From Psychrobacter sp. HD31 (lineage in GTDB: Bacteria > Pseudomonadota > Gammaproteobacteria > Pseudomonadales > Moraxellaceae): a DNA stretch of 32,000 bases. The notes beneath the pieces were generated by a model. The model saw only the letters and a list, made by a program, of their open reading frames with translations, did not search any database and was not told the DNA's origin. Numbering within the stretch: position 1 is the stretch's first letter; each line of letters starts with the position of its first letter. The stretch spans positions 1,890,001-1,922,000 of the forward strand of contig NZ_CP142525.1 in NCBI RefSeq assembly GCF_051097895.1. Direction: 5' to 3'. The position numbers were made by a program, and so were the translations under genes. Shown one piece after another: positions 11,136 to 26,535 of this stretch.

Positions 11136-11769
11136 TTTTAATTTTGGCGTGCTGGTTTTGACTATAGGGTGTTTATTACAGGCTGGCTGTGGTGATAAAG
11201 TGGCAGTTGCCAAACAAGAAATTGAAAAAATTCAATCAACCAATTCAACACAAACGATTGAGCCACTACCAAAAATTCGTAGCTATCCTAACAACTATTA
11301 TCAACCAGTGGTTAATACTCAATTGTTTTATCAAGCGAGCACTAACCAAGTTAAAAATACAACTACTGATGTAAACCAAAGTGATAAGCAACGAACAACA
11401 AACTTAAACAAAAGCAAAGTTGAGTCCGACATTAGTCGTAAAACAAATTTAGTGCCCAAACCTATGGTCAAGCAAGAACCCACATCAGTCGCTTCTTCTG
11501 CGGTTACAAAAAGCGGAGAAGCGTTAGTAGCCTTTAATTTTAATGGCTTTGTGTTTAAAGGTATTGTTATTACACCGCAAGCCGAAACACTTGGGTTGAT
11601 TGAATTGCCTAATAAACAGTTGATTACTGTTAAAAAAGGAGACTATGTAGGGAATAATCTTGGCAAGGTGACAGAAATTTCACAAAATTTTTTACAAATT
11701 GAGCAAAGTATTTGGGACGGAAACAAAGTTAAAAAAATTAAACAAACGCTATTTTTACCAGTCAAATAA
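11125..11769 (+). CDS. pilP: Type IV pilus assembly lipoprotein PilP
   Basis: I place the start at ATG 11125 (GGAGA 8 nt upstream, overlapping the pilO end). This gives MRNNFNFGVLVLTIGCLLQAGCGDK, a lipoprotein signal with lipobox LQAGC. The C-terminal beta-domain ...VKKGDYVGNNLGKVTEISQNFLQIEQSIWDG... resembles PilP. The position between pilO and pilQ fits. Confidence 0.75.
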   Translation: MRNNFNFGVLVLTIGCLLQAGCGDKVAVAKQEIEKIQSTNSTQTIEPLPKIRSYPNNYYQPVVNTQLFYQASTNQVKNTTTDVNQSDKQRTTNLNKSKVESDISRKTNLVPKPMVKQEPTSVASSAVTKSGEALVAFNFNGFVFKGIVITPQAETLGLIELPNKQLITVKKGDYVGNNLGKVTEISQNFLQIEQSIWDGNKVKKIKQTLFLPVK

Positions 11770-11893
11770 CTTTGATTATTTGAAAATTGTTTGAACGATT
11801 TAAATGATGTTTTTATGGATATAAAAGAGCAAATAGGGTGATAACAAGTTAATAAAAAGCTGAGTAGTTTTGACAAGGAATGTGAATAAAAAA

Positions 11894-13552
11894 ATGGATA
11901 AAAGATGGGATAAGGTGAAACGACTGCCTTTAGTAATGTGTATGAGTGTGGCAGTGATAAATGGTACACAAGCCGAGCAAATAGTACTAAATGGTGAAAT
12001 GATAGAAACAAAACTCATCACAGCTGAGCTTTTGCAAGATATTGTGCAGCCTCCTAGTAACCATTTAAATGGTTTAATTGATGAAACTACCGAAGCAATT
12101 AATCTATCGAATGCTAATAAACCCAACAAATTAAGCAACGTTAGTGCAATTAATGAGGATACACAAACAGCGCAAAATTTAGTTAACCGGCCAGAGAAAA
12201 CATATCAAGGTAAACCGATATCAATGGCATTTCAGGATGTGCCAATTCGTAATGTGTTAGACGTTTTAGCGCAAGTGACAGGGCTTAACATTGTAACCAG
12301 CGATTCTGTAACAGGAACAATGACACTTAGGTTAATGAATGTCCCTTGGGATCAGGTATTGGATGTTATTTTGCAAACACAAAACCTAATAATGCGAGAA
12401 GAAAACCAAGTGTTGATGATAACGCCATCTGATGAAGCAGCACAAAGGCTAGGGCGTTTTTCTCCATTGCATACAGAATATATTCGTTTAAATTATGCCA
12501 GTGTAAAAGATGTTCAAAAAATTATTAAAGAACGGCAATTAAATAATCAAAAAAATCCCTATATACCCACTACTGTTAGCCCTACTTATGCTAACTCTGC
12601 CAATGCTTCATCAACGCCTACATTAGTCAATAATTTAGTTGGCATAGCAAGTCCCAGCTTATTATCACCCCGAGGCACAGTCACGATTGATGAACGAACA
12701 AATATGTTAATTATTAAAGATACAGCCGCCAGTATTGAAAATATTAAAGGATTAATCAGCCGTATTGACATTCAAGTTGAGCAAGTCATGATAGAAGCAA
12801 GAATTGTGAGTGCGTCAGATTCTTTTAGTCGAGAACTGGGCGTTAATTGGGGTATTTTGTCAAATACAGTGGCTAATAATAATGACTTATTGATTGGAGG
12901 TAGCCAGCAAACCTTATGGGACTTACGTGATAATGATGCCAGCAGTTATAGAGGCTATGATATTAGCCGACCCAATAATTTAAACGTTGATTTGGGGATA
13001 GATAATGCCGCTGGGCGTATTGCTTTTGGTCTTATCAATTTATCAGATATCATGATTGATTTAGAGCTGTCTGCCATGCAAGCAGAAGGGCGTGGCGAAG
13101 TAATTTCTACACCCAAAATTTTAACGGGTGATAAACAAACGGCAAAAGTGGTTTCTGGCACACAAATACCGTATCAAGAGTCGGTTTCAAATGGTGTGAC
13201 TGCCACAAGGTTTATTGAAGCCGCTTTAAGCCTTGAAGTCACGCCAAGTATTACACCAGATGGTAACATTGGTATGCAATTAAATATTAATAATGATGCC
13301 CCTCGTCAATTAGCAACAGGGGAATATGCGATTGATACCAACAGCATTTCAACAAATGTCATTGTAAAAAATGGTCAAACGGTAGTGCTTGGTGGCGTAT
13401 ATCGCAATGCGATTTCTAATGCCGAAAACAAAGTCCCCGTATTAGGAGATGTGCCGGTTATCGGTAATTTGTTTAAACAAAAACTACGCAGCAACCAAAA
13501 AGAGGAGTTGCTTATTTTTGTTACCCCTAAGTTGGTTGGTCATACTAAGTAG
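11894..13552 (+). CDS. pilQ: Type IV pilus secretin PilQ
   Basis: N0/secretin-N region (ISMAFQDVPIRNVLDVLAQVTGLNIVTSDSVTGTMTLRLMNVPWDQVLDVIL) and the secretin C-domain ending ...VPVLGDVPVIGNLFKQK...EELLIFVTPKLV. The track start is TTG 11870; ATG 11894 (MDKRWDKVKRLPLVMCMSVAVINGTQA) is more plausible. Confidence 0.95.
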   Translation: MDKRWDKVKRLPLVMCMSVAVINGTQAEQIVLNGEMIETKLITAELLQDIVQPPSNHLNGLIDETTEAINLSNANKPNKLSNVSAINEDTQTAQNLVNRPEKTYQGKPISMAFQDVPIRNVLDVLAQVTGLNIVTSDSVTGTMTLRLMNVPWDQVLDVILQTQNLIMREENQVLMITPSDEAAQRLGRFSPLHTEYIRLNYASVKDVQKIIKERQLNNQKNPYIPTTVSPTYANSANASSTPTLVNNLVGIASPSLLSPRGTVTIDERTNMLIIKDTAASIENIKGLISRIDIQVEQVMIEARIVSASDSFSRELGVNWGILSNTVANNNDLLIGGSQQTLWDLRDNDASSYRGYDISRPNNLNVDLGIDNAAGRIAFGLINLSDIMIDLELSAMQAEGRGEVISTPKILTGDKQTAKVVSGTQIPYQESVSNGVTATRFIEAALSLEVTPSITPDGNIGMQLNINNDAPRQLATGEYAIDTNSISTNVIVKNGQTVVLGGVYRNAISNAENKVPVLGDVPVIGNLFKQKLRSNQKEELLIFVTPKLVGHTK

Positions 13553-13718
13553 ATAACAGTCAGTAAATAGCAGTAAGTAAATAACTTAATGTAACATGAG
13601 ATGTTAACCTAACTTCTGTTATTTTTAATCTACTTTACTCGATATTCCACATAAAAACTGGTAAGCAATCCAGATAACCGCTATCATAGATGCATTGTAT
13701 TAAAAGTAAGAATGATTT

Positions 13719-14276
13719 ATGGGCAAACCACTTGATTCCATATTTTTTGTTGGACCAATGGGAGCGGGCAAAACCACAATTGGTAAACTACTTGCAAAAA
13801 AGCTTGGGCGAAAATTTATAGACAGTGACTGGTATATCCAAGAATGCACTGGTGCAGACATTCCTTGGATTTTTGAAAAAGAAGGCGAAGAAGGCTTTAG
13901 ACAAAGAGAAACCAGCGCACTAGACGAATTAACCAAATTACCAAACTTGGTATTGGCAACAGGCGGTGGCGCGGTGATGCGCAAACAAAACCGTAAAATG
14001 TTGCAAGAGCGTGGTTTGGTCGTTTATCTTAATGCCAGTGTTGATGTGCAAGTAGAAAGAACCCGTAAAGACAAAAACCGTCCCTTGCTTAAAAACCCAA
14101 GCCCAAGGCAAGTACTGCATCGCTTGTATACGCACCGTCACCCTTACTATCAACAACTTGCAGATGTTGAGGTAATCACAGGGCATACTTACCCCAAGCA
14201 AATGGTTGCAGAAATTATTGAAGCCTTGTATAAACTTGGTTATGAGTTTGATATACAAGATAACGCAACCACTTAA
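13719..14276 (+). CDS. aroK: Shikimate kinase
   Basis: IFFVGPMGAGKTTIGKLLAKKLGRKFIDSD...TGADIPWIFEKEGEEGFRQRE...LATGGGAV...VVYL... is near-colinear with E. coli AroK. pilQ-aroK-aroB order is conserved. Confidence 0.95.
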   Translation: MGKPLDSIFFVGPMGAGKTTIGKLLAKKLGRKFIDSDWYIQECTGADIPWIFEKEGEEGFRQRETSALDELTKLPNLVLATGGGAVMRKQNRKMLQERGLVVYLNASVDVQVERTRKDKNRPLLKNPSPRQVLHRLYTHRHPYYQQLADVEVITGHTYPKQMVAEIIEALYKLGYEFDIQDNATT

Positions 14277-14347
14277 AAAAATTACGCTATCGGTTTTTAT
14301 CTTGTTAACAATCAAATAAAATTTATACCAATCAACCAGAAAAAATT

Positions 14348-15442
14348 ATGATGAAACCACAAACAATTACCGTAAATACTGCCAGTCATGATTACTTAAT
14401 TAACATCACTCAAGGATTAATTAACGATCCCCAACAGTTATACCAAACGTTGCAATCCTACATAAAAGGCAGCCAAGTATTGATTGTTACTAATGATGTT
14501 GTTGCACCTTTGTATTTAGCGCAATTAAAACAAGCGTTAGAGCAACACTATAAAGTGGTTGTTTGTGAACTGCCCGACGGAGAGCAGTTTAAAAACCAAG
14601 ACAGCATTAATAAAATATATGACCAGTTAATGGGACATCACTTTAACCGTGATGCTACCCTAATTGCCCTTGGAGGTGGTGTCATTGGTGACATGACAGG
14701 GTTTGCAGCAGCAAGCTTTATGCGTGGGGTGAATTTTATCCAAGTACCAACAACGCTGCTTTCTCAGGTGGACTCAAGTGTGGGTGGCAAAACAGGTATT
14801 AACCATGCACTTGGTAAAAATATGATAGGGGCGTTTTGGCAGCCGGGTTATGTTTTAGCCGATATGCAAAGTTTATCCACACTCCCTGCACGAGAGTTTT
14901 CGGCAGGTATGGCGGAGGTCATTAAATATGCTTTTATCATGGATGCGCCATTTTTAACATGGATAGAAGCCAATATTGATGCGATTATGTCGCTTGAATA
15001 CAGTGCGTTAAGTTATATTGTTAAACGTTGTTGTGAACTAAAAGCGCAAATAGTGGCAGAAGATGAGCGAGAATCCGGTAAACGCGCAATTTTAAATTTT
15101 GGGCACACCTTTGGGCATGTTATAGAAACACACCAAGGTTATGGCAACTGGCTGCATGGTGAAGCGGTAGCGGCAGGGATGGTTCAAGCGGCAAAATTAT
15201 CACACTCACAAGGCTGGTTAAGTGAGGATGATGTTAAACGCATTATTAACATTACGCAGCAATTAAATTTGCCGACCATGCCACCAGAAATTGAGGTACA
15301 AACGGCATTAGAGCTGATGCACCACGATAAAAAAACCATGTCTGGCAATATTAGGTTGGTTTTATTAAAATCAATTGGAGAGGCCGTTGTAACGAAAGAT
15401 TTTAGTCAAGATAAACTGGTAGAGGTTTTAAGCTCTCATTAA
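14348..15442 (+). CDS. aroB: 3-dehydroquinate synthase
   Basis: GGGVIGDMTGFAAASFMRGVNFIQVPTTLLSQVDSSVGGKTGINH..GKNMIGAFWQP and the metal ligands ...NFGHTFGH...HGEAVA.... 364 aa. Confidence 0.95.
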   Translation: MMKPQTITVNTASHDYLINITQGLINDPQQLYQTLQSYIKGSQVLIVTNDVVAPLYLAQLKQALEQHYKVVVCELPDGEQFKNQDSINKIYDQLMGHHFNRDATLIALGGGVIGDMTGFAAASFMRGVNFIQVPTTLLSQVDSSVGGKTGINHALGKNMIGAFWQPGYVLADMQSLSTLPAREFSAGMAEVIKYAFIMDAPFLTWIEANIDAIMSLEYSALSYIVKRCCELKAQIVAEDERESGKRAILNFGHTFGHVIETHQGYGNWLHGEAVAAGMVQAAKLSHSQGWLSEDDVKRIINITQQLNLPTMPPEIEVQTALELMHHDKKTMSGNIRLVLLKSIGEAVVTKDFSQDKLVEVLSSH

Positions 15443-15614
15443 TTGTTGGTTAATATAAAGCTAAAAAATGCCATATTAGGGCTAATCCCGTTATAATAGA
15501 TAAGTGGTTAAAATTTTGTTTTAATTGAATGAAAATCAGCTAATTTGATACGGTTTAAACGATAAAATTAGCCAAAATTTTAAAACTAGTCAGTGATAAA
15601 GTAGGTAAGTGAAG

Positions 15615-16739
15615 ATGTCGCAAACTCAATCAAAACGCAACGTTCATAACAAACGTGGATTGGCCTCTGTATGGTTAATTGCCACTTTGATTGTAACCTT
15701 ATTGACATTTACCTTGTGGATTTTTAGTGCGTCGGCGTCGGCAGTAGAAAGCGAAGAAGATGAAACGCAAGCTGAGCAAACAGAAGTAGAAAGTAGCTTG
15801 CTCAATGAAATATCATTGACGCGTCAAATTACCAATTTAGATGAACTCCAAAGCAGTGTCGCACCAATCAGCTTTGATGATATCATCATGGATATGCGTA
15901 ATTATCCTGCCGAATTTAAAGATAAAAAGTATTTGATTACACGACAAGGTAAGTGGACGATTCAGGTCATGAATGTGAGTGACCACAATATTATTAAAGA
16001 TTATTTAGAAACCAGAGAAGATAGAAGCGATTTTGCTTATTTTCGTTATATTGATGACTTTAAACAAACCCGCTACTTGCTAGTATATGGCGTAATGGGT
16101 ACCGAAGAAAAAATTAACAATTTGTTTGATAAAGTTGATTTTTCATTACCCAAAGGGGTAACTGCCAAACCAATCAAGTTTAGCAATTATCTTAGTAAAG
16201 TGGATAACTACGAGCGAGCTGATTCGATTGTTGCGATTACTAGCAAACAGCCGAGGGAAGTGAACCTTAAACCCACTAACCGAGAACTCGCTGCAAGAAC
16301 AGCAACATTGAAAATGAAAGACCCCACAGATGTGGTTAATACGGTGACGGCACCGAATAGTCCTAGTAATGTAAAAAATAATGACTTAGCGGCATCTGAT
16401 GCAAGTGATGAGTTAGAAAAGGCGCAAAATAATTCCGCATCAAACGAGGGTTCTCAAACGGTTGATGGTAGTAACAATGCTCAGGATGTGCAGCCGCAAA
16501 AAGAAAAGTCAAACCTTAATGACTCGGTGAGACCTGCCGATATACAAACAAAGGCTGATGCGCAGAAACCAACCAATGAGCCTAATAAAAAGACACCGGT
16601 AAAAAATAATGAGTCAAAGCCTGTTGCTAAAAAAGAGGAAACTAAAAAATCAGCGCCAGCAATAGCAAATAGCTCAAACAACAGTTCAACCAATGTTGGT
16701 TCTCAACCAAAGCAGTTTAATCCAGATGATGTTGAGTAA
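15615..16739 (+). CDS. DamX-like SPOR-domain membrane protein with a long low-complexity C-terminal tail
   Basis: N-terminal TM (LASVWLIATLIVTLLTFTLWIF), an acidic linker, then GKWTIQVMNVSDHNIIKDYLETREDRSDFAYFRYIDDFKQTRYLLVYGVMGTEEKINNLFDKVDFSLPKGVTAKPIKF. This parallels the E. coli DamX SPOR segment ([72 protein letters not shown], from memory). Its position after aroB matches damX in enterics. The ATG at 15615 has AGG 9 nt upstream; the track uses GTG 15609. Confidence 0.6.
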   Translation: MSQTQSKRNVHNKRGLASVWLIATLIVTLLTFTLWIFSASASAVESEEDETQAEQTEVESSLLNEISLTRQITNLDELQSSVAPISFDDIIMDMRNYPAEFKDKKYLITRQGKWTIQVMNVSDHNIIKDYLETREDRSDFAYFRYIDDFKQTRYLLVYGVMGTEEKINNLFDKVDFSLPKGVTAKPIKFSNYLSKVDNYERADSIVAITSKQPREVNLKPTNRELAARTATLKMKDPTDVVNTVTAPNSPSNVKNNDLAASDASDELEKAQNNSASNEGSQTVDGSNNAQDVQPQKEKSNLNDSVRPADIQTKADAQKPTNEPNKKTPVKNNESKPVAKKEETKKSAPAIANSSNNSSTNVGSQPKQFNPDDVE

Positions 16740-17281
16740 TAAGCACTCTTCATAAGTAAAGCTTGCAGAAAAATGTAAGTGAGGATGAATAAGCATAGCA
16801 TTTCATTACTTTTTTATTCAAAATGGTTATGTTGAGCATAATTATTTTTGACTGGATTTTTGTTTTATCATCTAATACTATGAAAGGTCGGCAAAATCGT
16901 ATCGTTAAGTTGTATTCTACAAGCTTTAAAGTGTTACTTATTAAATAGGGTGTTGATATGGGCGTTATTTAGCACTTTACTCCGTTTATTTAAAGCACTA
17001 AAAGCATACTATATAGTCAACAAGTCATTGGACTTAAACAAGTTGGTTATGTAAATTTATATAGTTTTTATGTTAAGACTTAACGTTTTAGACTGTCTTT
17101 TTTAAAAGATTTTCATATTTGTCATTCTTATTTTAACTAGCTTATTGCCAGTTACATATTTTATATATATGACGTTTGTTTTTAATTGCATAGCTAACAG
17201 CCATGTATTAGATTTATCTTATCAACAGACTGACAAGTGGATTACTTGTCTGCTGTTTTCTTAAAAGGGTATCAAAGCATT

Positions 17282-20200
17282 ATGACCAGACAATTATTTG
17301 ACCAAGACTTAGAACATTCAAGTTGTGGTGTCGGTTTTATTACCAATAAAAAAAGTATCCAAACGCATGAGTTGTTAGAACATGCTCATGAAGCGTTATG
17401 CAAAATTCCACACCGTGGTGGTATGAGTGCTGAAGGTGTTGGTGATGGTGCGGGTGTTAATATTGATATTTCTTTAAATTTTTATCGCCACCTTACCGAT
17501 ATAGAAGACTTAAAAGCCGGTGAATTTGGGGTCGGTAACTTTTTCTTCCCAAAAGATGAAACTCAGCACAAACGTTCAGAACAAGCAATCCGTGATGTTT
17601 TAAAAGCACACGATTTAAAAATACTATTGTGGCGAGATGTTGAAACTAACCCTGAAGTATTAAACCTTGCGGCGCAAAAATCGCAATTGGTTATCCATCA
17701 AGTCGTTTTTGCTAAGCCAAAATCAATCGAGTTAAGCGAAAACTCTCAAGAACATTTTGAAAAAGTCATCCACTTGGCGCTTAAAAAGATTGAAGCACTA
17801 TCATTAAATGATGAAAGTTTGGCAGGTTTGTTCCCACTTTCTATGAGCTCTAAAAGCCAAGTTTATAAAGGGCGTTTAAATAGTTGGGAGGTTGTACCAT
17901 ATTTTAAAGACCTGACTAACCCAGAGCATAAAATTCATACTTTATTCTTCCATACAAGGTTTTCAACCAATACAGCGCCAAACCCACTGTTTGCACAGCC
18001 TTTCCGTCGTATGGCACACAATGGTGAGCTAAATACCGACAAGAAAAATAGGTTGAGTGTTGCCGCGATTGCTAAATCACGTGGTAAGGAGCTTAAGTTC
18101 CCTAAAGGGCAGTCAGATTCGGCTAGACTTGATCAAACCCTAGCACGCCGTATGATTGAAGATGAAATGACCATCGACAAAGCATTGGTTGCGATGATGC
18201 CACCAGCATGGGAAAACGATATAAATTACTCAAAAGAAAGTAACCCCAAAGTTAGGGCAATGCTTGAGTATTTTTCATTATCTGAAGAAAAAAATGACGG
18301 ACCTGCTGCGATTATCTTCTTTGATGGTACTAAAGTTGGCGCAAGGCTTGACCGCCTAGGCTTGCGTCCACTTCGCTCGATTGAAACACATGATTATTTT
18401 GCTGTTATGAGTGAAGCTGGTCAAATTGACTTTGATCCAAGTACTGTGGTTGGTCGTGGGCGTATTAAAGCAGGTGGCATGGTGATGTTTGACCATGCAA
18501 GCCAACAAATTTTACGTTCGGATGAAATTTTAGAAGAATTAGCCAACGAGCAAAATTACCAAGAATTGTTAGATGCGGCAAAAATTGATATTGATGAGTT
18601 GCCCGAGGCTAAGCAAAGTGACTATGCCATACCAACTGATTTATGTTTGTCTGCTCGTCATGTTGCTTATTCATTAAACCAAGAAAGTTTTAGATTTTTC
18701 TTGGATCCGATGATGGCAGAGGCAAAAGAAAAAGTATCAGCCATGGGCTTTGGCTTAGCACCAGCGGGGATTGAACCTAATGAAGGTGGTATGTCTCGTT
18801 ACTTTAGTCAACGTTTTGCCCAGGTCACTAACCCTTCATTAGATAGTATCCGTGAAGCAGACGGTATGACGTTGCGCGTGGCATTAGGTGCAAAACCTAA
18901 CTTTAGCAATGGCTCAACCAAACAATTAATGATTGAATCGCCAATATTGCAGCCACAGCAACTAATGCAAATTAAAGCACTAGGGGATGACCAAGCGATT
19001 GGTGTTCAGACCTTAGATGCTTTGTATGTGCCGAGTGATGATGAAACAAAAAACCAAGAAAACTTAAAAGCAGCAATTGCTTCAGTTTGTGAGCAAGTGG
19101 CGCAACTTGCTGATCCAAAAAATCAACCTTCTGGTAATCCGCACGGTATCATTGTTTTGTCTGATGTTAATATCAGCAAGCAACATGCACCAATACCAGC
19201 AATTTTATTGGTGTCAGCGGTTAACCAACATCTTATTGCAAAAGGGCTGCGTTTTTATACCAACATTGTTATGGAAACAGGGCAAGCGGTTAGCACGCAC
19301 GATATCGCTTGTATCCTTGGCTTTGGTGCCTCAGCGGTATGTCCAGTTACTGTTTATAGCCGAGCATTAGAGCTTTATCAACAACCAGATGCGGTTGCCA
19401 AAGCTTTAAATAACTACCAAAAAGCAGTAGAAAAAGCCTTAATGAAAACCATGGGTAAATTTGGGCTGTGTACGGTAGAAAGCTACATTGGCGGTGAATT
19501 TTTTGAAGCCAACTTCTTAGATACGCAAGATGAGTACTTAGCTAAAGTATTCCCAAGTATTCGTTCACCACTTGGCGGTGCTAGTTTTACTGAAATTGCA
19601 AAAAGTGCGACAGATTGGCACAACAAAATTAAAGAAGTTCAGACAGAAGAGCAAATACCACTGTTAGGCTTATTTAAAGAACGTGGAGATGGTGCAGGTC
19701 ATGGTTTTGGTGTAACAGCCGTGCGTGAGTTTGTTGCCATGACAGAAGAAGACTTTAGCTATACAGATGAAGTTATCAAAAATGAAGAGGCGACATTATT
19801 ACCAAACGATACTAGCTATACCGATTTAGGCTATGAAAAACGCACGCCAGAACAAATTGATAAACATAGCATCACCCCAGCGTATCGTCATTTTGCCGAA
19901 GAGGTATATGCCGAGCGTGATGAGCGCCCTGCAACTTTACGTGATGTTTTAGTACTGCCTTTTGATGCTAGCAATGCCAAAATAGCTGATGACTTTGAAA
20001 CATTATTTAAAAAATATAGCAGCAAAGGTAATAACAATTTAAGTGTACAAGGCTTAACTATTACAGCCACTAGTGCACAAGAGTTAGACCAAGCTCAGGC
20101 AGACTATCAAATAACATTGGCTAACAAAAACTATGATGCGTTTGCCCAAGCTGCCAAAGCGGTGTTTGGTGACCAAGTTACTGCTCAAGTTGCCGACCAA

Positions 20201-22834
20201 GCTATTAATATTAGTGTAACGGGTGATGCAGCAAACTTTTTTGCACTGTTGCAAACCAGCAATCAAGCCATTTCGTTAGATGATGTGCAGCCTGCGCATC
20301 AAATTACCAAGGTGTTCTCAACAGGGGCAATGAGTCATGGTGCCTTGGTTGAGCGTGCTCACCAAGCGGTTGCTCATGGTGCCAATATTGCTGGTGCGTT
20401 AAGTAACTCAGGTGAAGGTGGTGAACAGTCTTACCGCTATAACTCAATCAAAGCAAGTAAAATTAAACAGTTTGCTTCTGGTCGTTTTGGTGTGTGGACA
20501 GGTTATGTTGCTGATCCATCGCTTGAAGAAATTGAGATTAAGATTGGGCAAGGTGCAAAACCAGGTGAAGGTGGTCAGTTGCCTGCCAAAAAGGTTAATG
20601 TTGAAATCGCGGCCGCCCGAAGTGGTACACCAGGGGTGGAACTTGTTTCGCCACCACCGCACCATGATACCTATTCTATTGAAGATTTGGCTCAGCTAAT
20701 TCATGATGCGAAATGTGCAAGGGTACGTGTTATTGTTAAGCTGGTATCTTCTGAAGGTGTCGGTACGATTGCGGTGGGTGTTGCTAAAGCTGGTGCTGAT
20801 GTGATTAACATCGCGGGTAACACAGGTGGTACAGGCGCAGCTCAGGTAACCAGTCTTAAGCATTCAGGTCGAGTGGCAGATATTGGTATTGCCGAAGTAC
20901 ACCAAGCCTTAGCAGAAAATGGATTGCGTGACAAAGTAGTATTACGTTGCTCAAATGCCCATCAGACTGGCTTAGATGTGGTTAAATCAGCCATTTTAGG
21001 TGGTGATAGCTTTGAGTTTGGTACAACCGCACTCATGATGCTTAAATGTGTGATGGCTAAAAACTGTAACGTTAAATGCCCAGCAGGTTTAACTACTAAC
21101 CCAGAGTTATATGAAGGTGATCCAAGAGCCTTAGCGCAATACTTTATTAACCTTGCGCACGAGGTACGTGAAATATTAGCGAAACTTGGTTATCGCTCAC
21201 TTGACGAAATACGTGGACAAACCCATTTGCTTAACTTAATTAATCATTCAGAAATGGTTGGACAAATTGATGCAACTGGTTTACTACGTCAAGTAGATGT
21301 GGTGAAAGTAGACAAGCCAATTTACTTAGAGGCTAATTTTGAGGTCGATGATTATTATTATGACCGCTTTATGCACAAGCTAATTAATGGTAAAGCACGC
21401 AAAATTAATATTAAAGGTCCTAAACTTAACAACCGTAATAAAACAGTTGGTGGTCAATTCTCGGTAGATGTAGAGCGTTTATTAAACTACACACTAACCG
21501 ATGAGCAAGTGGCAGAACAACCAGCCATTAAAGTACTGGCAAATGGACGAAGAGTATTAGAAGAAGACAGTGTTACCATTTATACTCACAACGCCGGTGG
21601 GCAAAGTTTTGGTGCCTTTAACACATCAGGTATTACCCTAATTAACAAAGGGGTGGTTAATGATGGTGTTGGTAAAGCCTTAACAGGCGGTTGTATCGTG
21701 GTTAAGAGCCCAGGTTTTGCTCGTCATTGGGATTCAGTAAGTGCCGACCGTAACGTTGTGGTGGGTAACTTTGCGTTATTTGGTGCCGTGGGTGGTGAGC
21801 TGTATGTAGAAGGACAAGCAGGCGACCGTTTTGGTGTCCGTAACTCGGGTGCGGTTGCGGTTGTTGAAGGTGTGGGTGATTTTTGCTGTGAATACATGAC
21901 CAATGGTTCGATTGTAAACCTTGGTAGTTATGGTAAAGGTTTTGGTAATGGTATGAGCGGTGGTACCGCTTATCAGTATGACCCAACTGGCGAAATTGTT
22001 AATCGTTGCTCAAAAGATTCGGTTGTCGCTTTACCACTTGCCGAAAAAGTAAAATTGGCAAGAGAGCAAGAGTACGCATTGATTGAACACTTGCAAGAGC
22101 ACTTGCGCCGTACGGGTTCTGAAGTCACGCAAAAAATATTGTCAGACTGGGATAACTCTCGTCAAGACTTTTATTATTTTGTGCCAGTAGCATTAATGAA
22201 TCATCACCGCAGTGAAAACATTGCTAAGTTGATTCCTCGTAAACAAATGATTGAAGAGCTAGCCGTAGCACTAGCCAAAAAACAAGCCAGCAGATTAGTC
22301 GCCGCTTTTGATGAGCATGAAAAATCTGGCACACCACTATTTGGCGGTATGATTCCATCGGTGGGTGATACGCATTCAGATCTTATGTCACAATATATTA
22401 ATGTGACAGGTGTGTGGCACAGAGCTTGCGAGCATTCGCAAAAAGCTTTAGGGATTGAAACGACCCTAGTTGATCTTGGCAACATAAAATGGCAAGCAGA
22501 TAACGATAAAATCAATGAGGGTGCTATTAAACTATTACGTACGCAAGAACGTAAGTTAATGGACAATCTATATAAAGATGTACGTGAAGCAATTGCCGAT
22601 TATAGTGATAACGCATTAGCAAGTTTACTTGCAAACAAACGTGTAGAAGACTATAAAGAGGCTCGTAGTAAGCGTGAAGTTACGGAGTCTAAAGCATATG
22701 GTACTGAAGTATGGATTGATGAATGTGATCGTGTAAATGCTAAAGAGTTGGCAGAGTTTGAATCGCTCGAACAACAATTGGCAGTCCATTACCTAAAATT
22801 TATTTTAGGCATGATGGCAACAGAAACAGTATAA
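17282..22834 (+). CDS. gltB: Glutamate synthase large (alpha) subunit-like protein, atypically long (Ntn-amidotransferase + central + FMN/3Fe-4S + GXGXG domains, plus an internal insertion and a C-terminal extension)
   Basis: Nucleophile Cys in ...LEHSSCGVGFI; RFSTNTAPNP..AQPFRRMAHNGELNT; DGPAAIIFFDG..VGARLDRLGLRP; FMN domain ...STGAMSHGAL...SNSGEGGE...KQFASGRFGV...IKIGQGAKPGEGGQLPAKKV...GVELVSPPPHHDTYSIEDLAQLIHD; Cys triad LKCVMAKNCNVKCPAG; GXGXG beta-helix (...GGQSFGAF..SG..L...G..NDGVGKALTGG.IVV...GN.ALFGA.GGELYVEGQAGDRFGVRNSGA.AVVEGVGDFCCEYMTNG.IV.LG..G.GFGNGMSGG.AY). The start is ambiguous: GTG 17237 (track) or ATG 17282. Both precede the catalytic Cys, which is exposed by propeptide removal in this family. 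Confidence 0.9.
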   Translation: MTRQLFDQDLEHSSCGVGFITNKKSIQTHELLEHAHEALCKIPHRGGMSAEGVGDGAGVNIDISLNFYRHLTDIEDLKAGEFGVGNFFFPKDETQHKRSEQAIRDVLKAHDLKILLWRDVETNPEVLNLAAQKSQLVIHQVVFAKPKSIELSENSQEHFEKVIHLALKKIEALSLNDESLAGLFPLSMSSKSQVYKGRLNSWEVVPYFKDLTNPEHKIHTLFFHTRFSTNTAPNPLFAQPFRRMAHNGELNTDKKNRLSVAAIAKSRGKELKFPKGQSDSARLDQTLARRMIEDEMTIDKALVAMMPPAWENDINYSKESNPKVRAMLEYFSLSEEKNDGPAAIIFFDGTKVGARLDRLGLRPLRSIETHDYFAVMSEAGQIDFDPSTVVGRGRIKAGGMVMFDHASQQILRSDEILEELANEQNYQELLDAAKIDIDELPEAKQSDYAIPTDLCLSARHVAYSLNQESFRFFLDPMMAEAKEKVSAMGFGLAPAGIEPNEGGMSRYFSQRFAQVTNPSLDSIREADGMTLRVALGAKPNFSNGSTKQLMIESPILQPQQLMQIKALGDDQAIGVQTLDALYVPSDDETKNQENLKAAIASVCEQVAQLADPKNQPSGNPHGIIVLSDVNISKQHAPIPAILLVSAVNQHLIAKGLRFYTNIVMETGQAVSTHDIACILGFGASAVCPVTVYSRALELYQQPDAVAKALNNYQKAVEKALMKTMGKFGLCTVESYIGGEFFEANFLDTQDEYLAKVFPSIRSPLGGASFTEIAKSATDWHNKIKEVQTEEQIPLLGLFKERGDGAGHGFGVTAVREFVAMTEEDFSYTDEVIKNEEATLLPNDTSYTDLGYEKRTPEQIDKHSITPAYRHFAEEVYAERDERPATLRDVLVLPFDASNAKIADDFETLFKKYSSKGNNNLSVQGLTITATSAQELDQAQADYQITLANKNYDAFAQAAKAVFGDQVTAQVADQAINISVTGDAANFFALLQTSNQAISLDDVQPAHQITKVFSTGAMSHGALVERAHQAVAHGANIAGALSNSGEGGEQSYRYNSIKASKIKQFASGRFGVWTGYVADPSLEEIEIKIGQGAKPGEGGQLPAKKVNVEIAAARSGTPGVELVSPPPHHDTYSIEDLAQLIHDAKCARVRVIVKLVSSEGVGTIAVGVAKAGADVINIAGNTGGTGAAQVTSLKHSGRVADIGIAEVHQALAENGLRDKVVLRCSNAHQTGLDVVKSAILGGDSFEFGTTALMMLKCVMAKNCNVKCPAGLTTNPELYEGDPRALAQYFINLAHEVREILAKLGYRSLDEIRGQTHLLNLINHSEMVGQIDATGLLRQVDVVKVDKPIYLEANFEVDDYYYDRFMHKLINGKARKINIKGPKLNNRNKTVGGQFSVDVERLLNYTLTDEQVAEQPAIKVLANGRRVLEEDSVTIYTHNAGGQSFGAFNTSGITLINKGVVNDGVGKALTGGCIVVKSPGFARHWDSVSADRNVVVGNFALFGAVGGELYVEGQAGDRFGVRNSGAVAVVEGVGDFCCEYMTNGSIVNLGSYGKGFGNGMSGGTAYQYDPTGEIVNRCSKDSVVALPLAEKVKLAREQEYALIEHLQEHLRRTGSEVTQKILSDWDNSRQDFYYFVPVALMNHHRSENIAKLIPRKQMIEELAVALAKKQASRLVAAFDEHEKSGTPLFGGMIPSVGDTHSDLMSQYINVTGVWHRACEHSQKALGIETTLVDLGNIKWQADNDKINEGAIKLLRTQERKLMDNLYKDVREAIADYSDNALASLLANKRVEDYKEARSKREVTESKAYGTEVWIDECDRVNAKELAEFESLEQQLAVHYLKFILGMMATETV

Positions 22835-22860
22835 ACATCAATCATACAAAGGATATAACA

Positions 22861-24612
22861 ATGGATAAGCAAAAGTTAGTAGATATCTTATCAGGCGGTT
22901 TACAGTCAGCAGCTTTGCCAATTGGATTGCCGTTAAACAAACAACAAAAACAATGGCTTGGCGGTTTTTTTGCAGGCTTGCAAACACAGTCAGCCACGGC
23001 TGGTGGGTTAGAGACCACAGGCAAACCTTTACTCATTATTTATGGTACTCAAACAGGCAATTCAGAGGCGGTTGCAGAAGATGCTGCCGCTGCTGCTAAG
23101 GCAAACGGGCTTGCACCAGTTGTGATGGATATGGATGATGTGGATGTTGCCACTTTAGCAAATACTGAACGCTTATTAGTGGTGACCAGTACCTATGGTG
23201 AAGGTGAAATGCCAGATAATGCTCACCTATTGTGGGAAGCCATTTGTGAAGAATCAGCACCAACATTGGATAAAACCTTTTACTCAGTATTGGCGCTGGG
23301 TGACTCAAGCTATGATGATTTTTGCCTTGCAGGCAAAGAATGGGATGAGCGTTTGCAATCATTGGGGGCAACTAAAATTGCAGACAGAGTCGATTGCGAT
23401 GTTGATTTTGATGAAGCCGCCAGTGGCTGGATAGAAACCGTATTGCCAATTATTAGCGAAAAAGGCTCAGATGAGGTGGCTGCACCAACAGCGGCTACTA
23501 ACAAGCCTGCTAAAAGCAAATTTAACCGTAAAAACCCATTGCCTGCCATTTTAAAAACAAAACGCATACTCACAGCGCCTGAGTCTAGTAAAGAGATTGT
23601 GCATTATGAGTTTGATCTAGCCGATAGTGGTGAAACCTATGTAGCCGGTGATGCACTAAACATTGTGCCAGTGAATCGTGATGATTTAGTGAATGAGTTT
23701 TTGGCATACTTTGCTGAAGAAGCAAATGACACAGTACGTCAGCAATTAACGACAGAGTTAGAAATACGCACACCGAGTAAAGAGCTGGTTAAACTGGTTG
23801 CCGAAAAAGGTGGCGATGATGAGTTAAATAGGCTACTTGCAAATAATGACCCAGAAGCTTTGGATGACTTTTTGTGGGGTAAAGACTGCTATGAGCTGGT
23901 AACAAACTATGCTGGTGATGATTTAACTCTAAATGAGTTTTTAGCCACCTGTAAGCCGTTGGTTGCACGTGCATATTCAATCTCCTCTAGCATTAAAAAG
24001 CATGAGAATGAGGTTCACCTGACCATTGGTAGCGTACGTTATAAAACAAACGAACGTCATCAAAATGGGGTTGCTTCAACTTATTTGGCAGATATTGCGA
24101 ATGAAGGGGATACCGTACACTGTTATTTCTCTCCAAATAAGAGCTTTAAGATTCCACAAGATGGCAGCTTACCTATTATCATGGTTGGTCCAGGCACTGG
24201 TATTGCGCCATTCCGCTCGTTCCTTGAAGCAAGAGAGATGACCCAAGCAACAGGTGACAACTGGCTACTATTTGGTGATCGTAACGCAGCGACAGACTTT
24301 ATCTATCGAGAAGAAGTAGAAGCAATGCAAGCAAGCGGATTGCTTACCAAATTGAGTTTAGCATTTAGCCGAGACCAAGCAGAAAAGATATACGTACAAG
24401 ACCGAATGAAAGAAGAAGGTGCAGAACTATTTGCATGGCTTGAACGTGGTGGCTACTTTTATATATGTGGTGATGCTTACCGTATGGCAAAAGACGTTGA
24501 TAAAGCCTTGCATGAGCTAATTGCCGAACATGGGAATATGAGTGATGATGAGGCAGTTAGCTATGTCAATCAGCTTAAAAAAGATAAGCGTTATGTTAGA
24601 GATGTTTATTAA
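22861..24612 (+). CDS. CysJ-like diflavin reductase, paralog 1 (flavodoxin-like FMN domain + FAD domain + NADPH domain)
   Basis: LLIIYGTQTGNSEAVAE...LLVVTSTYGEGEMPDNA...YSVLALGDSSYDDFCLAGKEWDERL (FMN domain); ...VARAYSISSS... (FAD); IIMVGPGTGIAPFRSF...FGDRN...YVQD...YFYICGDAYRMAKDV... ending RYVRDVY, like E. coli CysJ (...RYQRDVY). It starts 26 nt after the gltB-like stop, with AAGGA ~7 nt upstream and no intervening terminator. Confidence 0.85.
   Translation: MDKQKLVDILSGGLQSAALPIGLPLNKQQKQWLGGFFAGLQTQSATAGGLETTGKPLLIIYGTQTGNSEAVAEDAAAAAKANGLAPVVMDMDDVDVATLANTERLLVVTSTYGEGEMPDNAHLLWEAICEESAPTLDKTFYSVLALGDSSYDDFCLAGKEWDERLQSLGATKIADRVDCDVDFDEAASGWIETVLPIISEKGSDEVAAPTAATNKPAKSKFNRKNPLPAILKTKRILTAPESSKEIVHYEFDLADSGETYVAGDALNIVPVNRDDLVNEFLAYFAEEANDTVRQQLTTELEIRTPSKELVKLVAEKGGDDELNRLLANNDPEALDDFLWGKDCYELVTNYAGDDLTLNEFLATCKPLVARAYSISSSIKKHENEVHLTIGSVRYKTNERHQNGVASTYLADIANEGDTVHCYFSPNKSFKIPQDGSLPIIMVGPGTGIAPFRSFLEAREMTQATGDNWLLFGDRNAATDFIYREEVEAMQASGLLTKLSLAFSRDQAEKIYVQDRMKEEGAELFAWLERGGYFYICGDAYRMAKDVDKALHELIAEHGNMSDDEAVSYVNQLKKDKRYVRDVY
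24171..24527 (+). repeat. Near-identical 357-bp tract, copy 1 (NADPH-domain coding region shared by the two diflavin reductase paralogs)
   Basis: Aligned by eye to 26094-26450 at a constant offset of 1923 bp. There are 3 mismatches (24231, 24243, 24495), all synonymous. 24244-24494 is a perfect 251-bp run. Similarity drops sharply on both flanks. Confidence 0.95.
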
Positions 24613-24635
24613 ATTTTTAAACTTATAGATTGTGT

Positions 24636-24668
24636 AAAAAAGGCTGGATGGGTATCCAGCCTTTTTTA
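24636..24668 (+). terminator. Rho-independent terminator after diflavin reductase paralog 1
   Basis: AAAAA-GGCTGGAT-GGGT-ATCCAGCC-TTTTTT. This is a perfect 8-bp GC-rich stem (24642-24649 / 24654-24661) with a 4-nt loop and a T6 tract, starting 24 nt after the stop codon. The upstream A-tract makes it symmetric. Confidence 0.8.
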
Positions 24669-24768
24669 TTTGTGCTTTTTACCATATTTAGCTTGCTGTT
24701 AAAACTTAACTAGTTTACACTTGTTAACTGATTAAAGGTCTCATATCTATTAGGTTTAAAAGCATAAG

Positions 24769-26535
24769 ATGACAAAAGATAATCCTCAACAACAAGAACA
24801 AACAAGTGGTTTTTTTGGTTGGCTAAAAAGCCTATTAGGTCTTACCGAAATCGATATGGGGTTGTCAGATTTTGATGACAGTGCAGGCAAGCACCTCACA
24901 ATCATTTATGGCACCCAAACAGGTAACGCCCAGTCGGTTGCCGAGATGGTTGCCGAACAAGCCAAAGCCATCGGTTTAGACACCTCGTTAAGAGATATGG
25001 AAACCGTAGATATTAGTATTTTTAAAGAGCTGGAACACTTGCTTGTGGTTACCAGTACTTTTGATGATGGTGGTATGCCTGAAAATGCTGAAGCTTTGTG
25101 GGAGTCAATTTGTGACCCAAGTGCCCCTATGCTCAATGGGCTTAAATACTCGGTATTAGGTTTAGGCGACTCAACTTACTTAAATTTTTGTATGGCAGGT
25201 AAGGAGTGGGATGCACGCCTAGAAGCTTTAGGCTGTGTTAGCATGGTTGACCGTGTAGATTGTGATGTGGATTATGAAGCCCCATCAACGGCGTGGGCGC
25301 AAAACGTGCTAACCATCATTGCCAAAGCCTATGGTTTGCAGGACAATTTAGGCAACTTAACCAACCTAAGTAGCCAACAAGCCCCAACGCATGTGCAATA
25401 TACGCATAATCGTAAAAATCCATTAAATGCCAAAATGTTAACCAAAAAAGTGTTAACGGCGGCAAACTCTACTAAACAGATTATGCACTATGAGCTCGAT
25501 ATCAGTGAGCTGGCTGATTTAAACGGCAATAATGACAATATGCCGTTATATGCAGAAGGTGATGCCATTCATATCCTCCCAAAAAATAACTCAAACTTAG
25601 TACAAGACGTTTTAAGTTATTTTGCAGTAACCCAAGCCACGCAAGAGCATGCTGCATTGGTTAATCAATTTACTAATGAGATTGAAATACGCACACCAAG
25701 CAAAGAGTTGGTGAAACTGGTTGCCGAAAAAGGTGGCAATGATGAGTTAAATAGGCTACTTGCAAACAATGACCCAGAAGCACTCGATGACTTTTTGTGG
25801 GGCAAAGATAGCCTAACGCTTATCAAAACCTATGCGGATAAAAAAATAGCCTTAAATGAGTTTAAAGCGGTTTGTTCACCATTGGTTGCACGTGCTTATT
25901 CCATTTCATCTAGCCCCCATAAACACCCGCATCAAGTGCATATGACTGTACGAAGTGTGCGTTATAATACTGCTCAAAAAGAGCACAGTGGCGTGGCTTC
26001 AACCTATTTGGCAGATATGGTTAATGAAGGCGACACCCTACAGTGTTATTTTACGTCAAATGCCAGTTTTAAATTGCCAGAAGATGGTAGCCTACCTATT
26101 ATCATGGTTGGTCCAGGCACTGGTATTGCGCCATTCCGCTCGTTCCTTGAAGCCAGAGAGATGACGCAAGCAACAGGTGACAACTGGCTACTATTTGGTG
26201 ATCGTAACGCAGCGACAGACTTTATCTATCGAGAAGAAGTAGAAGCAATGCAAGCAAGCGGATTGCTTACCAAATTGAGTTTAGCATTTAGCCGAGACCA
26301 AGCAGAAAAGATATACGTACAAGACCGAATGAAAGAAGAAGGTGCAGAACTATTTGCATGGCTTGAACGTGGTGGCTACTTTTATATATGTGGTGATGCT
26401 TACCGTATGGCAAAAGATGTTGATAAAGCCTTGCATGAGCTAATTGCCGAGCATGGTAAAATGAGTGATTTAGATGCGATGGCGTATGTTAATAAACTGC
26501 AAAAACAAAAACGGTATGTTAAAGATGTTTATTGA
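24769..26535 (+). CDS. CysJ-like diflavin reductase, paralog 2
   Basis: Same three-domain architecture: LTIIYGTQTGNAQSVAE...LLVVTSTFDDGGMPENA...YSVLGLGDSTYLNFCMAGKEWDARL; VARAYSISSS; IIMVGPGTGIAPFRSF...; ends RYVKDVY. It is intact (no frameshift or stop). Only a weak Shine-Dalgarno-like sequence precedes the ATG. Confidence 0.85.
   Translation: MTKDNPQQQEQTSGFFGWLKSLLGLTEIDMGLSDFDDSAGKHLTIIYGTQTGNAQSVAEMVAEQAKAIGLDTSLRDMETVDISIFKELEHLLVVTSTFDDGGMPENAEALWESICDPSAPMLNGLKYSVLGLGDSTYLNFCMAGKEWDARLEALGCVSMVDRVDCDVDYEAPSTAWAQNVLTIIAKAYGLQDNLGNLTNLSSQQAPTHVQYTHNRKNPLNAKMLTKKVLTAANSTKQIMHYELDISELADLNGNNDNMPLYAEGDAIHILPKNNSNLVQDVLSYFAVTQATQEHAALVNQFTNEIEIRTPSKELVKLVAEKGGNDELNRLLANNDPEALDDFLWGKDSLTLIKTYADKKIALNEFKAVCSPLVARAYSISSSPHKHPHQVHMTVRSVRYNTAQKEHSGVASTYLADMVNEGDTLQCYFTSNASFKLPEDGSLPIIMVGPGTGIAPFRSFLEAREMTQATGDNWLLFGDRNAATDFIYREEVEAMQASGLLTKLSLAFSRDQAEKIYVQDRMKEEGAELFAWLERGGYFYICGDAYRMAKDVDKALHELIAEHGKMSDLDAMAYVNKLQKQKRYVKDVY
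26094..26450 (+). repeat. Near-identical 357-bp tract, copy 2
   Basis: Partner of 24171-24527 (see that entry). Confidence 0.95.

Follow-up and report, generated by a model that had tools for sequence, protein, structure and literature searches.

In a 32,000-nucleotide (nt) stretch of the genome of Psychrobacter sp. HD31 (contig NZ_CP142525.1, positions 1,890,001 to 1,922,000; hereafter, the window), a long gene related to gltB, the gene for the large (alpha) subunit of glutamate synthase (GOGAT), is directly followed by two genes related to cysJ. GOGAT is one of the two enzymes that bring ammonium into organic matter in most bacteria and plants, and textbooks list three types of electron donor for it: ferredoxin, NADPH by way of GltD, and NADH by way of a fused domain that resembles GltD. 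The subject of this analysis is the pair formed by the long gltB-like gene and its cysJ-like neighbor. Throughout, gltBL denotes the long gltB-like gene, cysJL the CysJ-like partner gene, and cysJ1 and cysJ2 the HD31 copies; unless a locus is named, positions are those of the window, and these genes, their domains, and their flanking signals lie on its plus strand. According to the map of open reading frames (ORFs) and the matches to Pfam and NCBIfam, the gene order is miaB, a LysE-type exporter gene (minus strand), mltG, tmk, mrcA (minus strand), pilM-N-O-P-Q, aroK, and aroB, followed by an ORF of 376 amino acids (aa), gltBL, cysJ1, cysJ2, hemG, proC, a gene for a YGGT protein, a gene for a CobW-like GTPase, and panE.

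The gltBL gene (17282–22834) encodes a protein of 1850 aa. A longer ORF with a GTG start at 17237 would give 1865 aa, and the ATG at 17282 was taken as the true start because an indel between the two codons breaks the longer frame in the closest relative found in our searches, a metagenome-assembled genome (MAG) deposited as 'Gammaproteobacteria bacterium' (GCA_002747095.1; locus L004), whose GltBL is 95% identical. An initial annotation of this DNA had described an ORF of about 1850 aa with all four domains of the GOGAT alpha subunit, and Pfam bore this out, finding the domains in canonical order at E values of 1e-49 to 1e-104. These are the class-II glutamine amidotransferase domain (GATase_2; 17324–18565, E = 1.8e-93), the central domain (Glu_syn_central; 18656–19510, E = 4.3e-75), the flavin mononucleotide (FMN)/2-oxoglutarate or synthase domain (Glu_synthase; 20216–21193, E = 1.7e-104), and the GXGXG beta-helix domain (GXGXG; 21542–22042, E = 3.2e-49), which correspond to residues 30–443, 474–758, 994–1319, and 1436–1602, respectively, in the numbering of the 1865-aa GTG ORF. 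GltBL also matched the GOGAT structures in the PDB at E = 1e-214 to 1e-240. On the NCBIfam GltB equivalog NF008730, it scored 1035.4 bits, just under the cut-off of 1047, with the match split in two by an insert. An alignment of 22 family members showed that the glutaminase motifs CGVGF, HTRFSTNT, NGELNT (NGE(L)NT), and GQSDS are kept, and the FMN/2-oxoglutarate motifs GAMSHG, SNSGEGGE, QGAKPGEGGQLP, SPPPHHDTYSIEDL, and GGTGA are likewise kept in the family alignment. The nucleophile, Cys15, would become exposed once a 14-aa propeptide is removed. The putative ligands of the [3Fe-4S] cluster are Cys1256, Cys1262, and Cys1266 (KCVMAKNCNVKCP; 21047–21079); the cluster cysteines are invariant, spaced C-x5-C-x3-C-P in 120 of 120 family members, as against C-x5-C-x4-C-P in canonical GltB. 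By its domain content and motifs, GltBL is thus a member of the GOGAT alpha family. It is 29–41% identical to the GltB proteins of E. coli and Psychrobacter, which are 58% identical to each other, and a database search retrieved more than 100 clusters of proteins of 1800–1860 aa with 56–95% identity to GltBL, named by NCBI at most 'glutamate synthase-related protein'. As judged from these comparisons, the GltBL family is old and separate from canonical GltB.

Relative to canonical GltB and the GOGATs in the PDB, GltBL carries three family-specific additions of approximately 165, 35, and 200 aa. The first, delimited by alignments to aa ~816–981 (19727–20224), lies between the central and FMN domains and has no counterpart in any PDB GltB/GOGAT alignment or in canonical GltB. 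AlphaFold2 modeled aa ~894–993 at a predicted local distance difference test score (pLDDT) of 80–96, with low confidence elsewhere, and the confident part is predicted to be a small alpha/beta domain that extends slightly beyond the insert into the flanking FMN-domain sequence; a fold search with this model gave no PDB fold match, only chance-level matches. The second addition, also defined by alignment, precedes the GXGXG domain (aa ~1400–1432; nt ~21479–21577). The third is an all-alpha C-terminal domain (22244–22831), which AlphaFold2 modeled with 13 helices (mean pLDDT 89.7; predicted template modeling score, pTM, 0.83). Its fold search gave no PDB match at E ≤ 0.001, only chance-level designed proteins and helical bundles. 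When a profile of this domain was searched against 1.84 billion representative proteins, 131 matches were obtained, the longest of which (1704–1877 aa) have the length of GltBL; the others were shorter, mostly fragment-sized. The helical C-terminal domain might be a module on which the reductase docks.

The genes downstream, cysJ1 (583 aa; 22861–24612) and cysJ2 (588 aa; 24769–26535), are paralogs, and Pfam assigned Flavodoxin_1, FAD_binding_1, and NAD_binding_1 domains to each product, just as the initial annotation had expected of two successive diflavin reductases of these lengths. Their closest relative in the PDB is the sulfite reductase flavoprotein (SiR-FP) of E. coli (E = 2.6e-107), with cytochrome P450 reductase (CPR) at about 1e-67. 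Both fall below both NCBIfam cut-offs for CysJ, namely 668 bits for TIGR01931 and 838 bits for NF008197: cysJ1 scored 573 and 454 bits and cysJ2 534 and 404 bits, respectively. The motifs for binding FMN, flavin adenine dinucleotide (FAD), and NADPH are intact in the cysJ1 product (TQTGN, YGEGEMPDNA, RAYSISSS, GPGTGIAPFR, SRDQ, and a C-terminal DVY), which is 37% identical to E. coli CysJ and 58–63% identical to the partner reductases of Methylophaga, Vibrio, Pseudoalteromonas, and Flavicella. These partner reductases have in common a CysJ-type N-terminal motif, LP(F/L)NxxQ(K/R)QWLGGFxxGL, the counterpart of which in E. coli CysJ is LTPTQLAWVSGYFWGVL. In CysJ, this region mediates oligomerization, so that a scaffold like CysJ8 is possible for the partner reductases by analogy. 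On score and on the lack of a linked cysI described below, cysJ1 appears to encode a diflavin reductase of the CysJ branch and not a CysJ equivalog.

The junction between gltBL and cysJ1 (22835–22860) is 26 nt long and contains no terminator-like site, and an AAGGA Shine–Dalgarno sequence lies ~8 nt before the cysJ1 ATG; the initial annotation had likewise described a gap of 26 nt with a good Shine–Dalgarno sequence and no terminator. After cysJ1, an intrinsic-terminator-like hairpin of 16 pairs followed by a T run (24634–24669) separates it from cysJ2, so that only gltBL and cysJ1 look co-transcribed; cysJ2 is probably a separate transcription unit, and no terminator-like site was found in the interval between cysJ2 and hemG (26634). 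Upstream of gltBL is an AT-rich (28% GC) non-coding region of ~540 nt (16740–17281), presumably the promoter and 5′ leader, which is 92% identical to its L004 equivalent. Within it, a terminator-like hairpin with a T-rich run (17232–17250), ~30 nt ahead of the gltBL start and identical in L004, may be a leader structure. Rfam had no match in the window or in the gltBL leader, and site searches upstream of the HD31 gltBL found no Fur box, sigma-54 promoter, or NtrC site. Across the gltBL loci of other genomes considered below, the sigma-54 consensus was not enriched upstream of the gene over controls.

The second paralog, cysJ2, was seen in HD31 and L004 only among the loci examined. It is 64% identical to cysJ1 and only 48–53% identical to the partner reductases of other genera. 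Most of the N-terminal motif is missing from it, and its FMN domain has diverged (TSTFDDGGMPENA against TSTYGEGEMPDNA). A 360-nt tract in the NADPH-binding domain of cysJ1 (24163–24522) is nevertheless 97–100% identical to the matching tract of cysJ2 (26086–26445), including an exact run of 251 nt, whereas the remainder of the two genes is 50–70% identical. The L004 paralogs have substitutions of their own that are common to both copies within the same tract; together with the tract identity, this indicates ongoing gene conversion (concerted evolution) of the NADPH module, which would be held identical while the FMN domain diverged. The diverged FMN domain, the tract, and the terminator ahead of the gene make cysJ2 look like a reductase that is expressed separately and that has the NADPH/FAD engine of cysJ1 but faces its acceptor with a different domain. 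The sequence comparisons thus point to a later, lineage-specific duplicate outside the conserved pair, which probably serves another acceptor. The initial annotation had offered both reductases as partners of the GltB-like protein; this stands for cysJ1 and not for cysJ2, a duplicate specific to this lineage that has diverged in both its N-terminus and its FMN domain and lies behind a terminator. We also considered cysJ2 as the true cysJ of the genome and rejected this because it is a recent cysJ1 paralog that has a gene-conversion tract in common with it.

No GltD homolog was found in the window by tblastn (best E = 0.3 with Flavicella GltD; none at E ≤ 1e-6 with Psychrobacter GltD), and E. 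coli CysI and CysH queries likewise gave no match at E ≤ 1e-6, in line with the initial annotation, which had seen neither gltD nor cysI there. In Psychrobacter okhotskensis and Psychrobacter sp. AH5, the corresponding block reads mrcA (minus strand) followed by pilMNOPQ-aroK-aroB-orf-gltB-gltD, with an orf of 364–369 aa, a gltB of 1487 aa, and a gltD of 473–500 aa. In HD31 and L004, gltBL-cysJ1-cysJ2 occupies the slot of this gltB-gltD. The claim that the cysJ-like genes sit where gltD is expected, originally argued from Pseudomonas and Acinetobacter, therefore holds against these closer relatives. Because other Psychrobacter carry gltB-gltD at the same position, gltBD was replaced in situ in the HD31 lineage, and the arrangement is not a rearranged neighborhood. 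HD31 AroB is only ~69% identical to that of mainstream Psychrobacter, which places HD31 in a divergent lineage with a small genome. We infer a small, host-associated genome in which the pair is now the resident GOGAT at the gltBD locus. The pair was also carried, at lower identity than in L004, by MAGs of dolphin-oral origin according to their isolate names (DOLJORAL78 and DOLZORAL124).

To survey the pair, one genome per GTDB species was scanned with an alignment of the GltBL insert region, and the long GltB was found in at least 537 species. In the first three loci looked up (Methylophaga frappieri, Vibrio nigripulchritudo, and Pseudoalteromonas luteoviolacea), the gene directly after the long gltB encodes 586–600 aa with Flavodoxin_1, FAD_binding_1, and NAD_binding_1 domains, and the other neighbors all differ. 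The best 80 loci were fetched. They came from Vibrio, Veronia, Psychromonas, Pseudoalteromonas, Alteromonas, Colwellia, Oceanobacter, Oleiphilaceae, Cellvibrionales, Piscirickettsiaceae, many Methylococcales (including Methylotuvimicrobium buryatense 5G, Methylobacter luteus, and a Bathymodiolus symbiont), the Bacteroidota Flavicella and Aquimarina, and one alphaproteobacterial MAG (Hyphomicrobiales). Among the 71 loci that were informative (i.e., had enough downstream DNA), tblastn identified a same-strand cysJ-like gene downstream of gltBL in 70, across three phyla or classes. The spacing was −13 to +152 nt in 68 of the 71, and the two genes overlap in 18 of these 68, which suggests translational coupling. 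In two loci, insertions of 1.4–1.9 kb lie between gltBL and the reductase gene (L044 and L077). The association was also reciprocal: the closest cysJ1 homologs lie on contigs that also bear gltBL, and two homologs picked blind (Vibrio sonorensis and Oleiphilus) have the long gltB immediately upstream. The single informative locus without a cysJ-like gene is a MAG contig (L075, 8968–12709), which may reflect a MAG rearrangement or a different donor.

Some of these loci show peculiarities of their own. The gap in L044, from a Methylococcales-like MAG (13336–14773), holds ORFs resembling an Mrr-type nuclease and a PemK/MazF toxin. By eye, the translations downstream of gltBL in L075 include an HPPK-like protein and a thioredoxin-reductase-like flavoprotein of 322 aa. 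The long gltB, the reductase gene, or both appear frameshifted or split in L019 (7897–15144; Psychromonas sp. KJ10-2), L092 (2531–7968; Vibrio sonorensis), and L085 (13445–15186; a Psychromonadaceae MAG), which may reflect pseudogenes or errors in sequencing.

The CysJ-like genes are currently named 'sulfite reductase flavoprotein subunit alpha' by NCBI and JGI, and one could take them for ordinary assimilatory sulfite reductase flavoproteins that lie beside gltBL incidentally. This name, the top PDB match to E. coli SiR-FP, and the CysJ-type N-terminal motif all fit such a reading. The pair does resemble the CysJ–CysI system (EC 1.8.1.2; PDB 6EFV, 9C91, and 1DDG): the reductase is of the same family, with 37% identity to E. 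coli CysJ and the N-terminal motif, and in both cases a diflavin reductase would feed a metallo-flavo/heme catalytic subunit whose gene is adjacent. The acceptor here, however, would be of the GltB type and not a siroheme/[4Fe-4S] CysI, and cysI is never linked: with E. coli queries and E ≤ 1e-6, tblastn found no CysI or CysH match within 10 kb in 89 of 89 loci, and these loci showed no other partner either. Moreover, the scores lie under both cysJ equivalog cut-offs, and the adjacency to gltBL is kept across Gammaproteobacteria, Bacteroidota, and the alphaproteobacterial MAG while the remaining neighbors change. The sulfite reductase reading is therefore very unlikely, to the point of being negligible.

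The surroundings of the pair in other genomes often relate to nitrogen. Methylophaga has the order glnA...ntrB-ntrC-gltBL-cysJL, glnD lies near the pair in Methylotuvimicrobium, and Flavicella-type Bacteroidota have amtB-glnK-amtB-gltB-gltD-gltBL-cysJL. The tandem gltB-gltD-gltBL-cysJL also occurs in Vibrio fortis and Aquimarina, and in Psychromonas a canonical gltB lies ~5 kb downstream of the pair. In genomes with both systems, the pairing is 1:1, with gltD beside gltB and cysJL beside gltBL. These tandems indicate that the pair is a second, self-contained system and is not simply anti-correlated with gltD. Of the two patterns raised in the initial annotation, the adjacency of the long GltB to a cysJ-like gene was thus confirmed, in 70 of 71 loci and reciprocally, and Flavicella, Aquimarina, and Vibrio fortis show that there is no simple anti-correlation with gltD. 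As gene order indicates, the pair is a second isozyme that in HD31 took over the gltBD locus.

Because gltD adjoins the pair in some genomes, GltBL might pair with a canonical GltD from elsewhere, with the CysJ-like protein as an accessory, for instance an alternative or conditional donor or a reductive activator. In those genomes, however, gltD belongs with its own canonical gltB, and in HD31 the conserved slot holds no gltD. The identity of only 29–41% to canonical GltB, the three family-specific additions, and the adjacency in 70 of 71 loci, often with overlap, also argue against this option, which we regard as quite improbable. Alternatively, the pair might be a GOGAT-like two-component oxidoreductase for another reaction, with another 2-oxo acid or amide donor, or working in the glutamate-oxidizing direction. 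The deep divergence of the family from canonical GltB, its coexistence with canonical gltBD in several genomes, the altered cluster motif and extra domains, and the cautious 'glutamate synthase-related' of the NCBI name would all be compatible with such an enzyme. Nevertheless, the glutaminase and 2-oxoglutarate/FMN motifs are essentially those of bona fide GOGATs, the HD31 pair occupies the gltBD slot, and elsewhere the pair lies within glnA/ntrBC or amtB/glnK/gltBD clusters, which makes a different reaction unlikely. A relationship with the N-methylglutamate synthase of methylotrophs was likewise considered. In that enzyme, GltB-like domains are split over three subunits; the candidate was rejected because GltBL is full length, its glutaminase site is intact, and it comes with a redox partner, for which such an enzyme would have no use.

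Taken together, these observations make it likely that gltBL and cysJ1 encode a two-subunit, NADPH-dependent glutamate synthase in which a CysJ-type diflavin reductase replaces GltD. The idea of a diflavin-reductase-driven GOGAT, put forward in the initial annotation, is well supported by comparative genomics. Electrons would pass from NADPH through the FAD and FMN of the reductase to the [3Fe-4S] cluster and FMN of GltBL and on to 2-iminoglutarate, with ammonia channeled from the glutaminase site as in other GOGATs, so that the net reaction would be that of GOGAT. The two proteins would form a complex, with the GltBL insert and the helical C-terminal domain as possible docking surfaces. In E. 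coli SiR-FP, the couple of the FMN hydroquinone is at ~−330 mV, below those of Azospirillum GltB at ~−280 mV (3Fe-4S) and ~−240 mV (FMN); electron transfer along this path would therefore be downhill.

The reference system is the NADPH-dependent GltB–GltD enzyme (EC 1.4.1.13; Azospirillum, E. coli, and B. subtilis; PDB 1EA0, 2VDC, 6S6X, and 7MFM). The pair resembles it in the domain order, catalytic motifs, and three cluster cysteines of the large subunit, in the likely use of NADPH as donor, in being a two-gene operon with the large subunit first, and in occupying the same slot in Psychrobacter. It differs in its second subunit, a flavodoxin–FAD–NADPH reductase without Fe-S clusters in place of GltD, which carries two [4Fe-4S] clusters plus FAD, and in its large subunit, which is ~350 aa longer than GltB, has C-x5-C-x3-C instead of C-x5-C-x4-C, and is 29–41% identical to it. 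With no linked gltD, a different cluster spacing, and extra domains, GltBL does not appear to belong to the classical GltBD holoenzyme type. Ferredoxin-dependent GOGAT (Fd-GOGAT, EC 1.4.7.1; Synechocystis; PDB 1LLW and 1OFD) offers another parallel, in that an alpha subunit dispenses with GltD and is supplied by a separate carrier with single electrons on its [3Fe-4S]/FMN side. Such alpha-type subunits are established to act alone with ferredoxin, and GltBL might accordingly be a ferredoxin- or flavodoxin-dependent GOGAT for which the CysJ-like protein only regenerates the small carrier. However, GltBL lacks the FMN-domain loop of Fd-GOGAT (the alignment skips chain residues 915–938 of 1LLW) and has different additions of its own. 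Furthermore, no small ferredoxin or flavodoxin gene is conserved beside the pair in the Methylophaga, Vibrio, Pseudoalteromonas, and Flavicella-type loci, and the reductase brings its own FMN carrier domain. We therefore give this variant only a slim chance; in the preferred reading, a diflavin-reductase-driven GOGAT, the donor would be not free ferredoxin but an FMN domain that is tethered within a dedicated NADPH reductase from the same operon.

Several points weigh against this reading. The case for a protein–protein interaction and for GOGAT activity comes entirely from comparative genomics, and co-inheritance in an operon could by itself conserve the adjacency of two proteins that act in one pathway and never touch. 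The independence from GltD is likewise deduced solely from gene position. The cluster spacing is unlike that of every characterized GOGAT, which keeps the [3Fe-4S] assignment putative, and the added domains of GltBL have no recognizable fold relatives, so that a docking role for them is a guess.

A possible advantage of the exchange concerns iron. Since GltD has two [4Fe-4S] clusters, its replacement by a diflavin reductase would lower the need from 11 to 3 Fe per protomer. We scanned up to 300 nt upstream of gltBL in 74 loci for the Fur consensus GATAATGATAATCATTATC, using 155 intergenic upstream regions from the same loci as controls. Fur-box-like sites with ≤4 mismatches occurred at 8 of the 74 gltBL loci and at none of the 155 controls (0.38 expected from shuffles), and sites with ≤5 mismatches at 16 of 74 versus 4 of 155 (Fisher p = 6e-6), some of the target loci being from the same species. 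The best sites were those of a Cellvibrionales MAG (2 mismatches), Marinifaba (3 mismatches), Vibrio penaeicida, V. nigripulchritudo, an Alteromonadaceae MAG, Bacterioplanoides, and Flavicella, in which the site falls between gltD and gltBL. The sites lie 76–190 nt ahead of the gltBL ATG; those with 2–4 mismatches, which come from several unrelated marine lineages, include L039 4660–4678, L015 7611–7629, L055 7761–7779, L024 7715–7733, L008 7805–7823, and L002 9688–9706. At four loci, the gene upstream runs in the same direction as gltBL, which leaves gltBL as the only gene that the site can serve. The presence of such sites in many marine lineages suggests that the pair is an iron-sparing isozyme. 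Two findings speak against a general role of this kind: several sites are flanked by divergent genes, so that they might be those of the neighbor, and the HD31 upstream region, like that of about half of the loci, mostly from methanotrophs, is without a Fur box. Iron regulation of the pair would thus be lineage-specific at best, and the lack of a Fur box in HD31 would fit a copy that has turned into a housekeeping enzyme.

In an Oleiphilus contig (L093), the pair lies between acnB (1–1994) and, ~5 kb off, fumC (14561–15940), which encodes the class II, iron-free fumarase. FumC is a classical iron-sparing isozyme; its nearness to the pair is suggestive only. Canonical gltB is itself a target of iron-sparing small RNAs (sRNAs), namely RyhB in V. 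cholerae and E. coli, FsrA in B. subtilis, and IsrR in S. aureus (PMC5511505, PMC9410917). A low-iron GOGAT derepressed through Fur would complement the sRNA-mediated shutdown of the Fe-S-rich GltBD. The pair would thereby resemble the Fur-controlled isozyme swaps of flavodoxin for ferredoxin, FumC for FumA, and MnSOD for FeSOD, in that an iron-free part replaces an Fe-S-rich one, Fur-box-like sites lie upstream in many lineages, and the canonical counterpart is turned off via iron-sparing sRNAs. Unlike in those swaps, iron regulation is predicted from sequence only, and not for the HD31 copy. The joint picture of an iron-frugal (3 versus 11 Fe), Fur-derepressed diflavin-GOGAT, docked via the C-terminal domain and the insert and serving as the sole GOGAT of lineages such as Psychrobacter sp. 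HD31 and perhaps also Methylophaga and type I methanotrophs, is one that we advance tentatively, as rather less probable than not.

The initial annotation knew of no described example of such an enzyme. Our literature search, which did not cover all journals, so that a prior mention is possible, also found no publication describing a GltB/diflavin-reductase pair, and a paper on Methylomicrobium alcaliphilum mentions GOGAT only generically. From gene content and distribution, the pair probably represents a further electron-donor class of GOGAT that is widespread, undescribed, and currently misannotated. If so, it would be a fourth donor arrangement and a new class in a well-studied enzyme family, as well as a natural experiment on feeding the [3Fe-4S]/FMN core of GOGAT from different modules. 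The annotation of hundreds of 'sulfite reductase flavoprotein' genes would be corrected, a label that inflates the sulfur assimilation inferred for marine bacteria, methanotrophs, and MAGs. The pair also occurs in methanotrophs used in biotechnology (Methylotuvimicrobium buryatense 5G), the metabolic models of which assume a standard GOGAT. If the link to iron holds, it would make iron limitation, be it in the ocean or in host-associated niches, a matter of nitrogen assimilation as well and would explain how the glutamine synthetase (GS)–GOGAT cycle can run while RyhB-type sRNAs repress canonical gltB.

Elsewhere in the window, the 376-aa ORF between aroB and gltBL (15609–16739) had been labeled a SPOR protein; this was not confirmed, as the ORF has no Pfam or NCBIfam match at the thresholds used. 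ORFs of similar size (346–369 aa), also without a Pfam match, lie at the same position in L004, L088, and L089. HD31 PilQ (11870–13552), with a TTG start, has 560 aa and L004 PilQ 570 aa, more than 200 aa shorter than the typical Psychrobacter PilQ of 786–794 aa with its AMIN domain (L088, 6801–9161); in the HD31/L004 lineage, PilQ seems to be without the AMIN region at its N-terminus. The pilO-like (10332–11135) and pilP-like (11053–11769) ORFs, as mechanically called, share 83 nt, and those of L004 overlap likewise (1454–2248 and 2154–2873); the true pilP start is probably further downstream than called.

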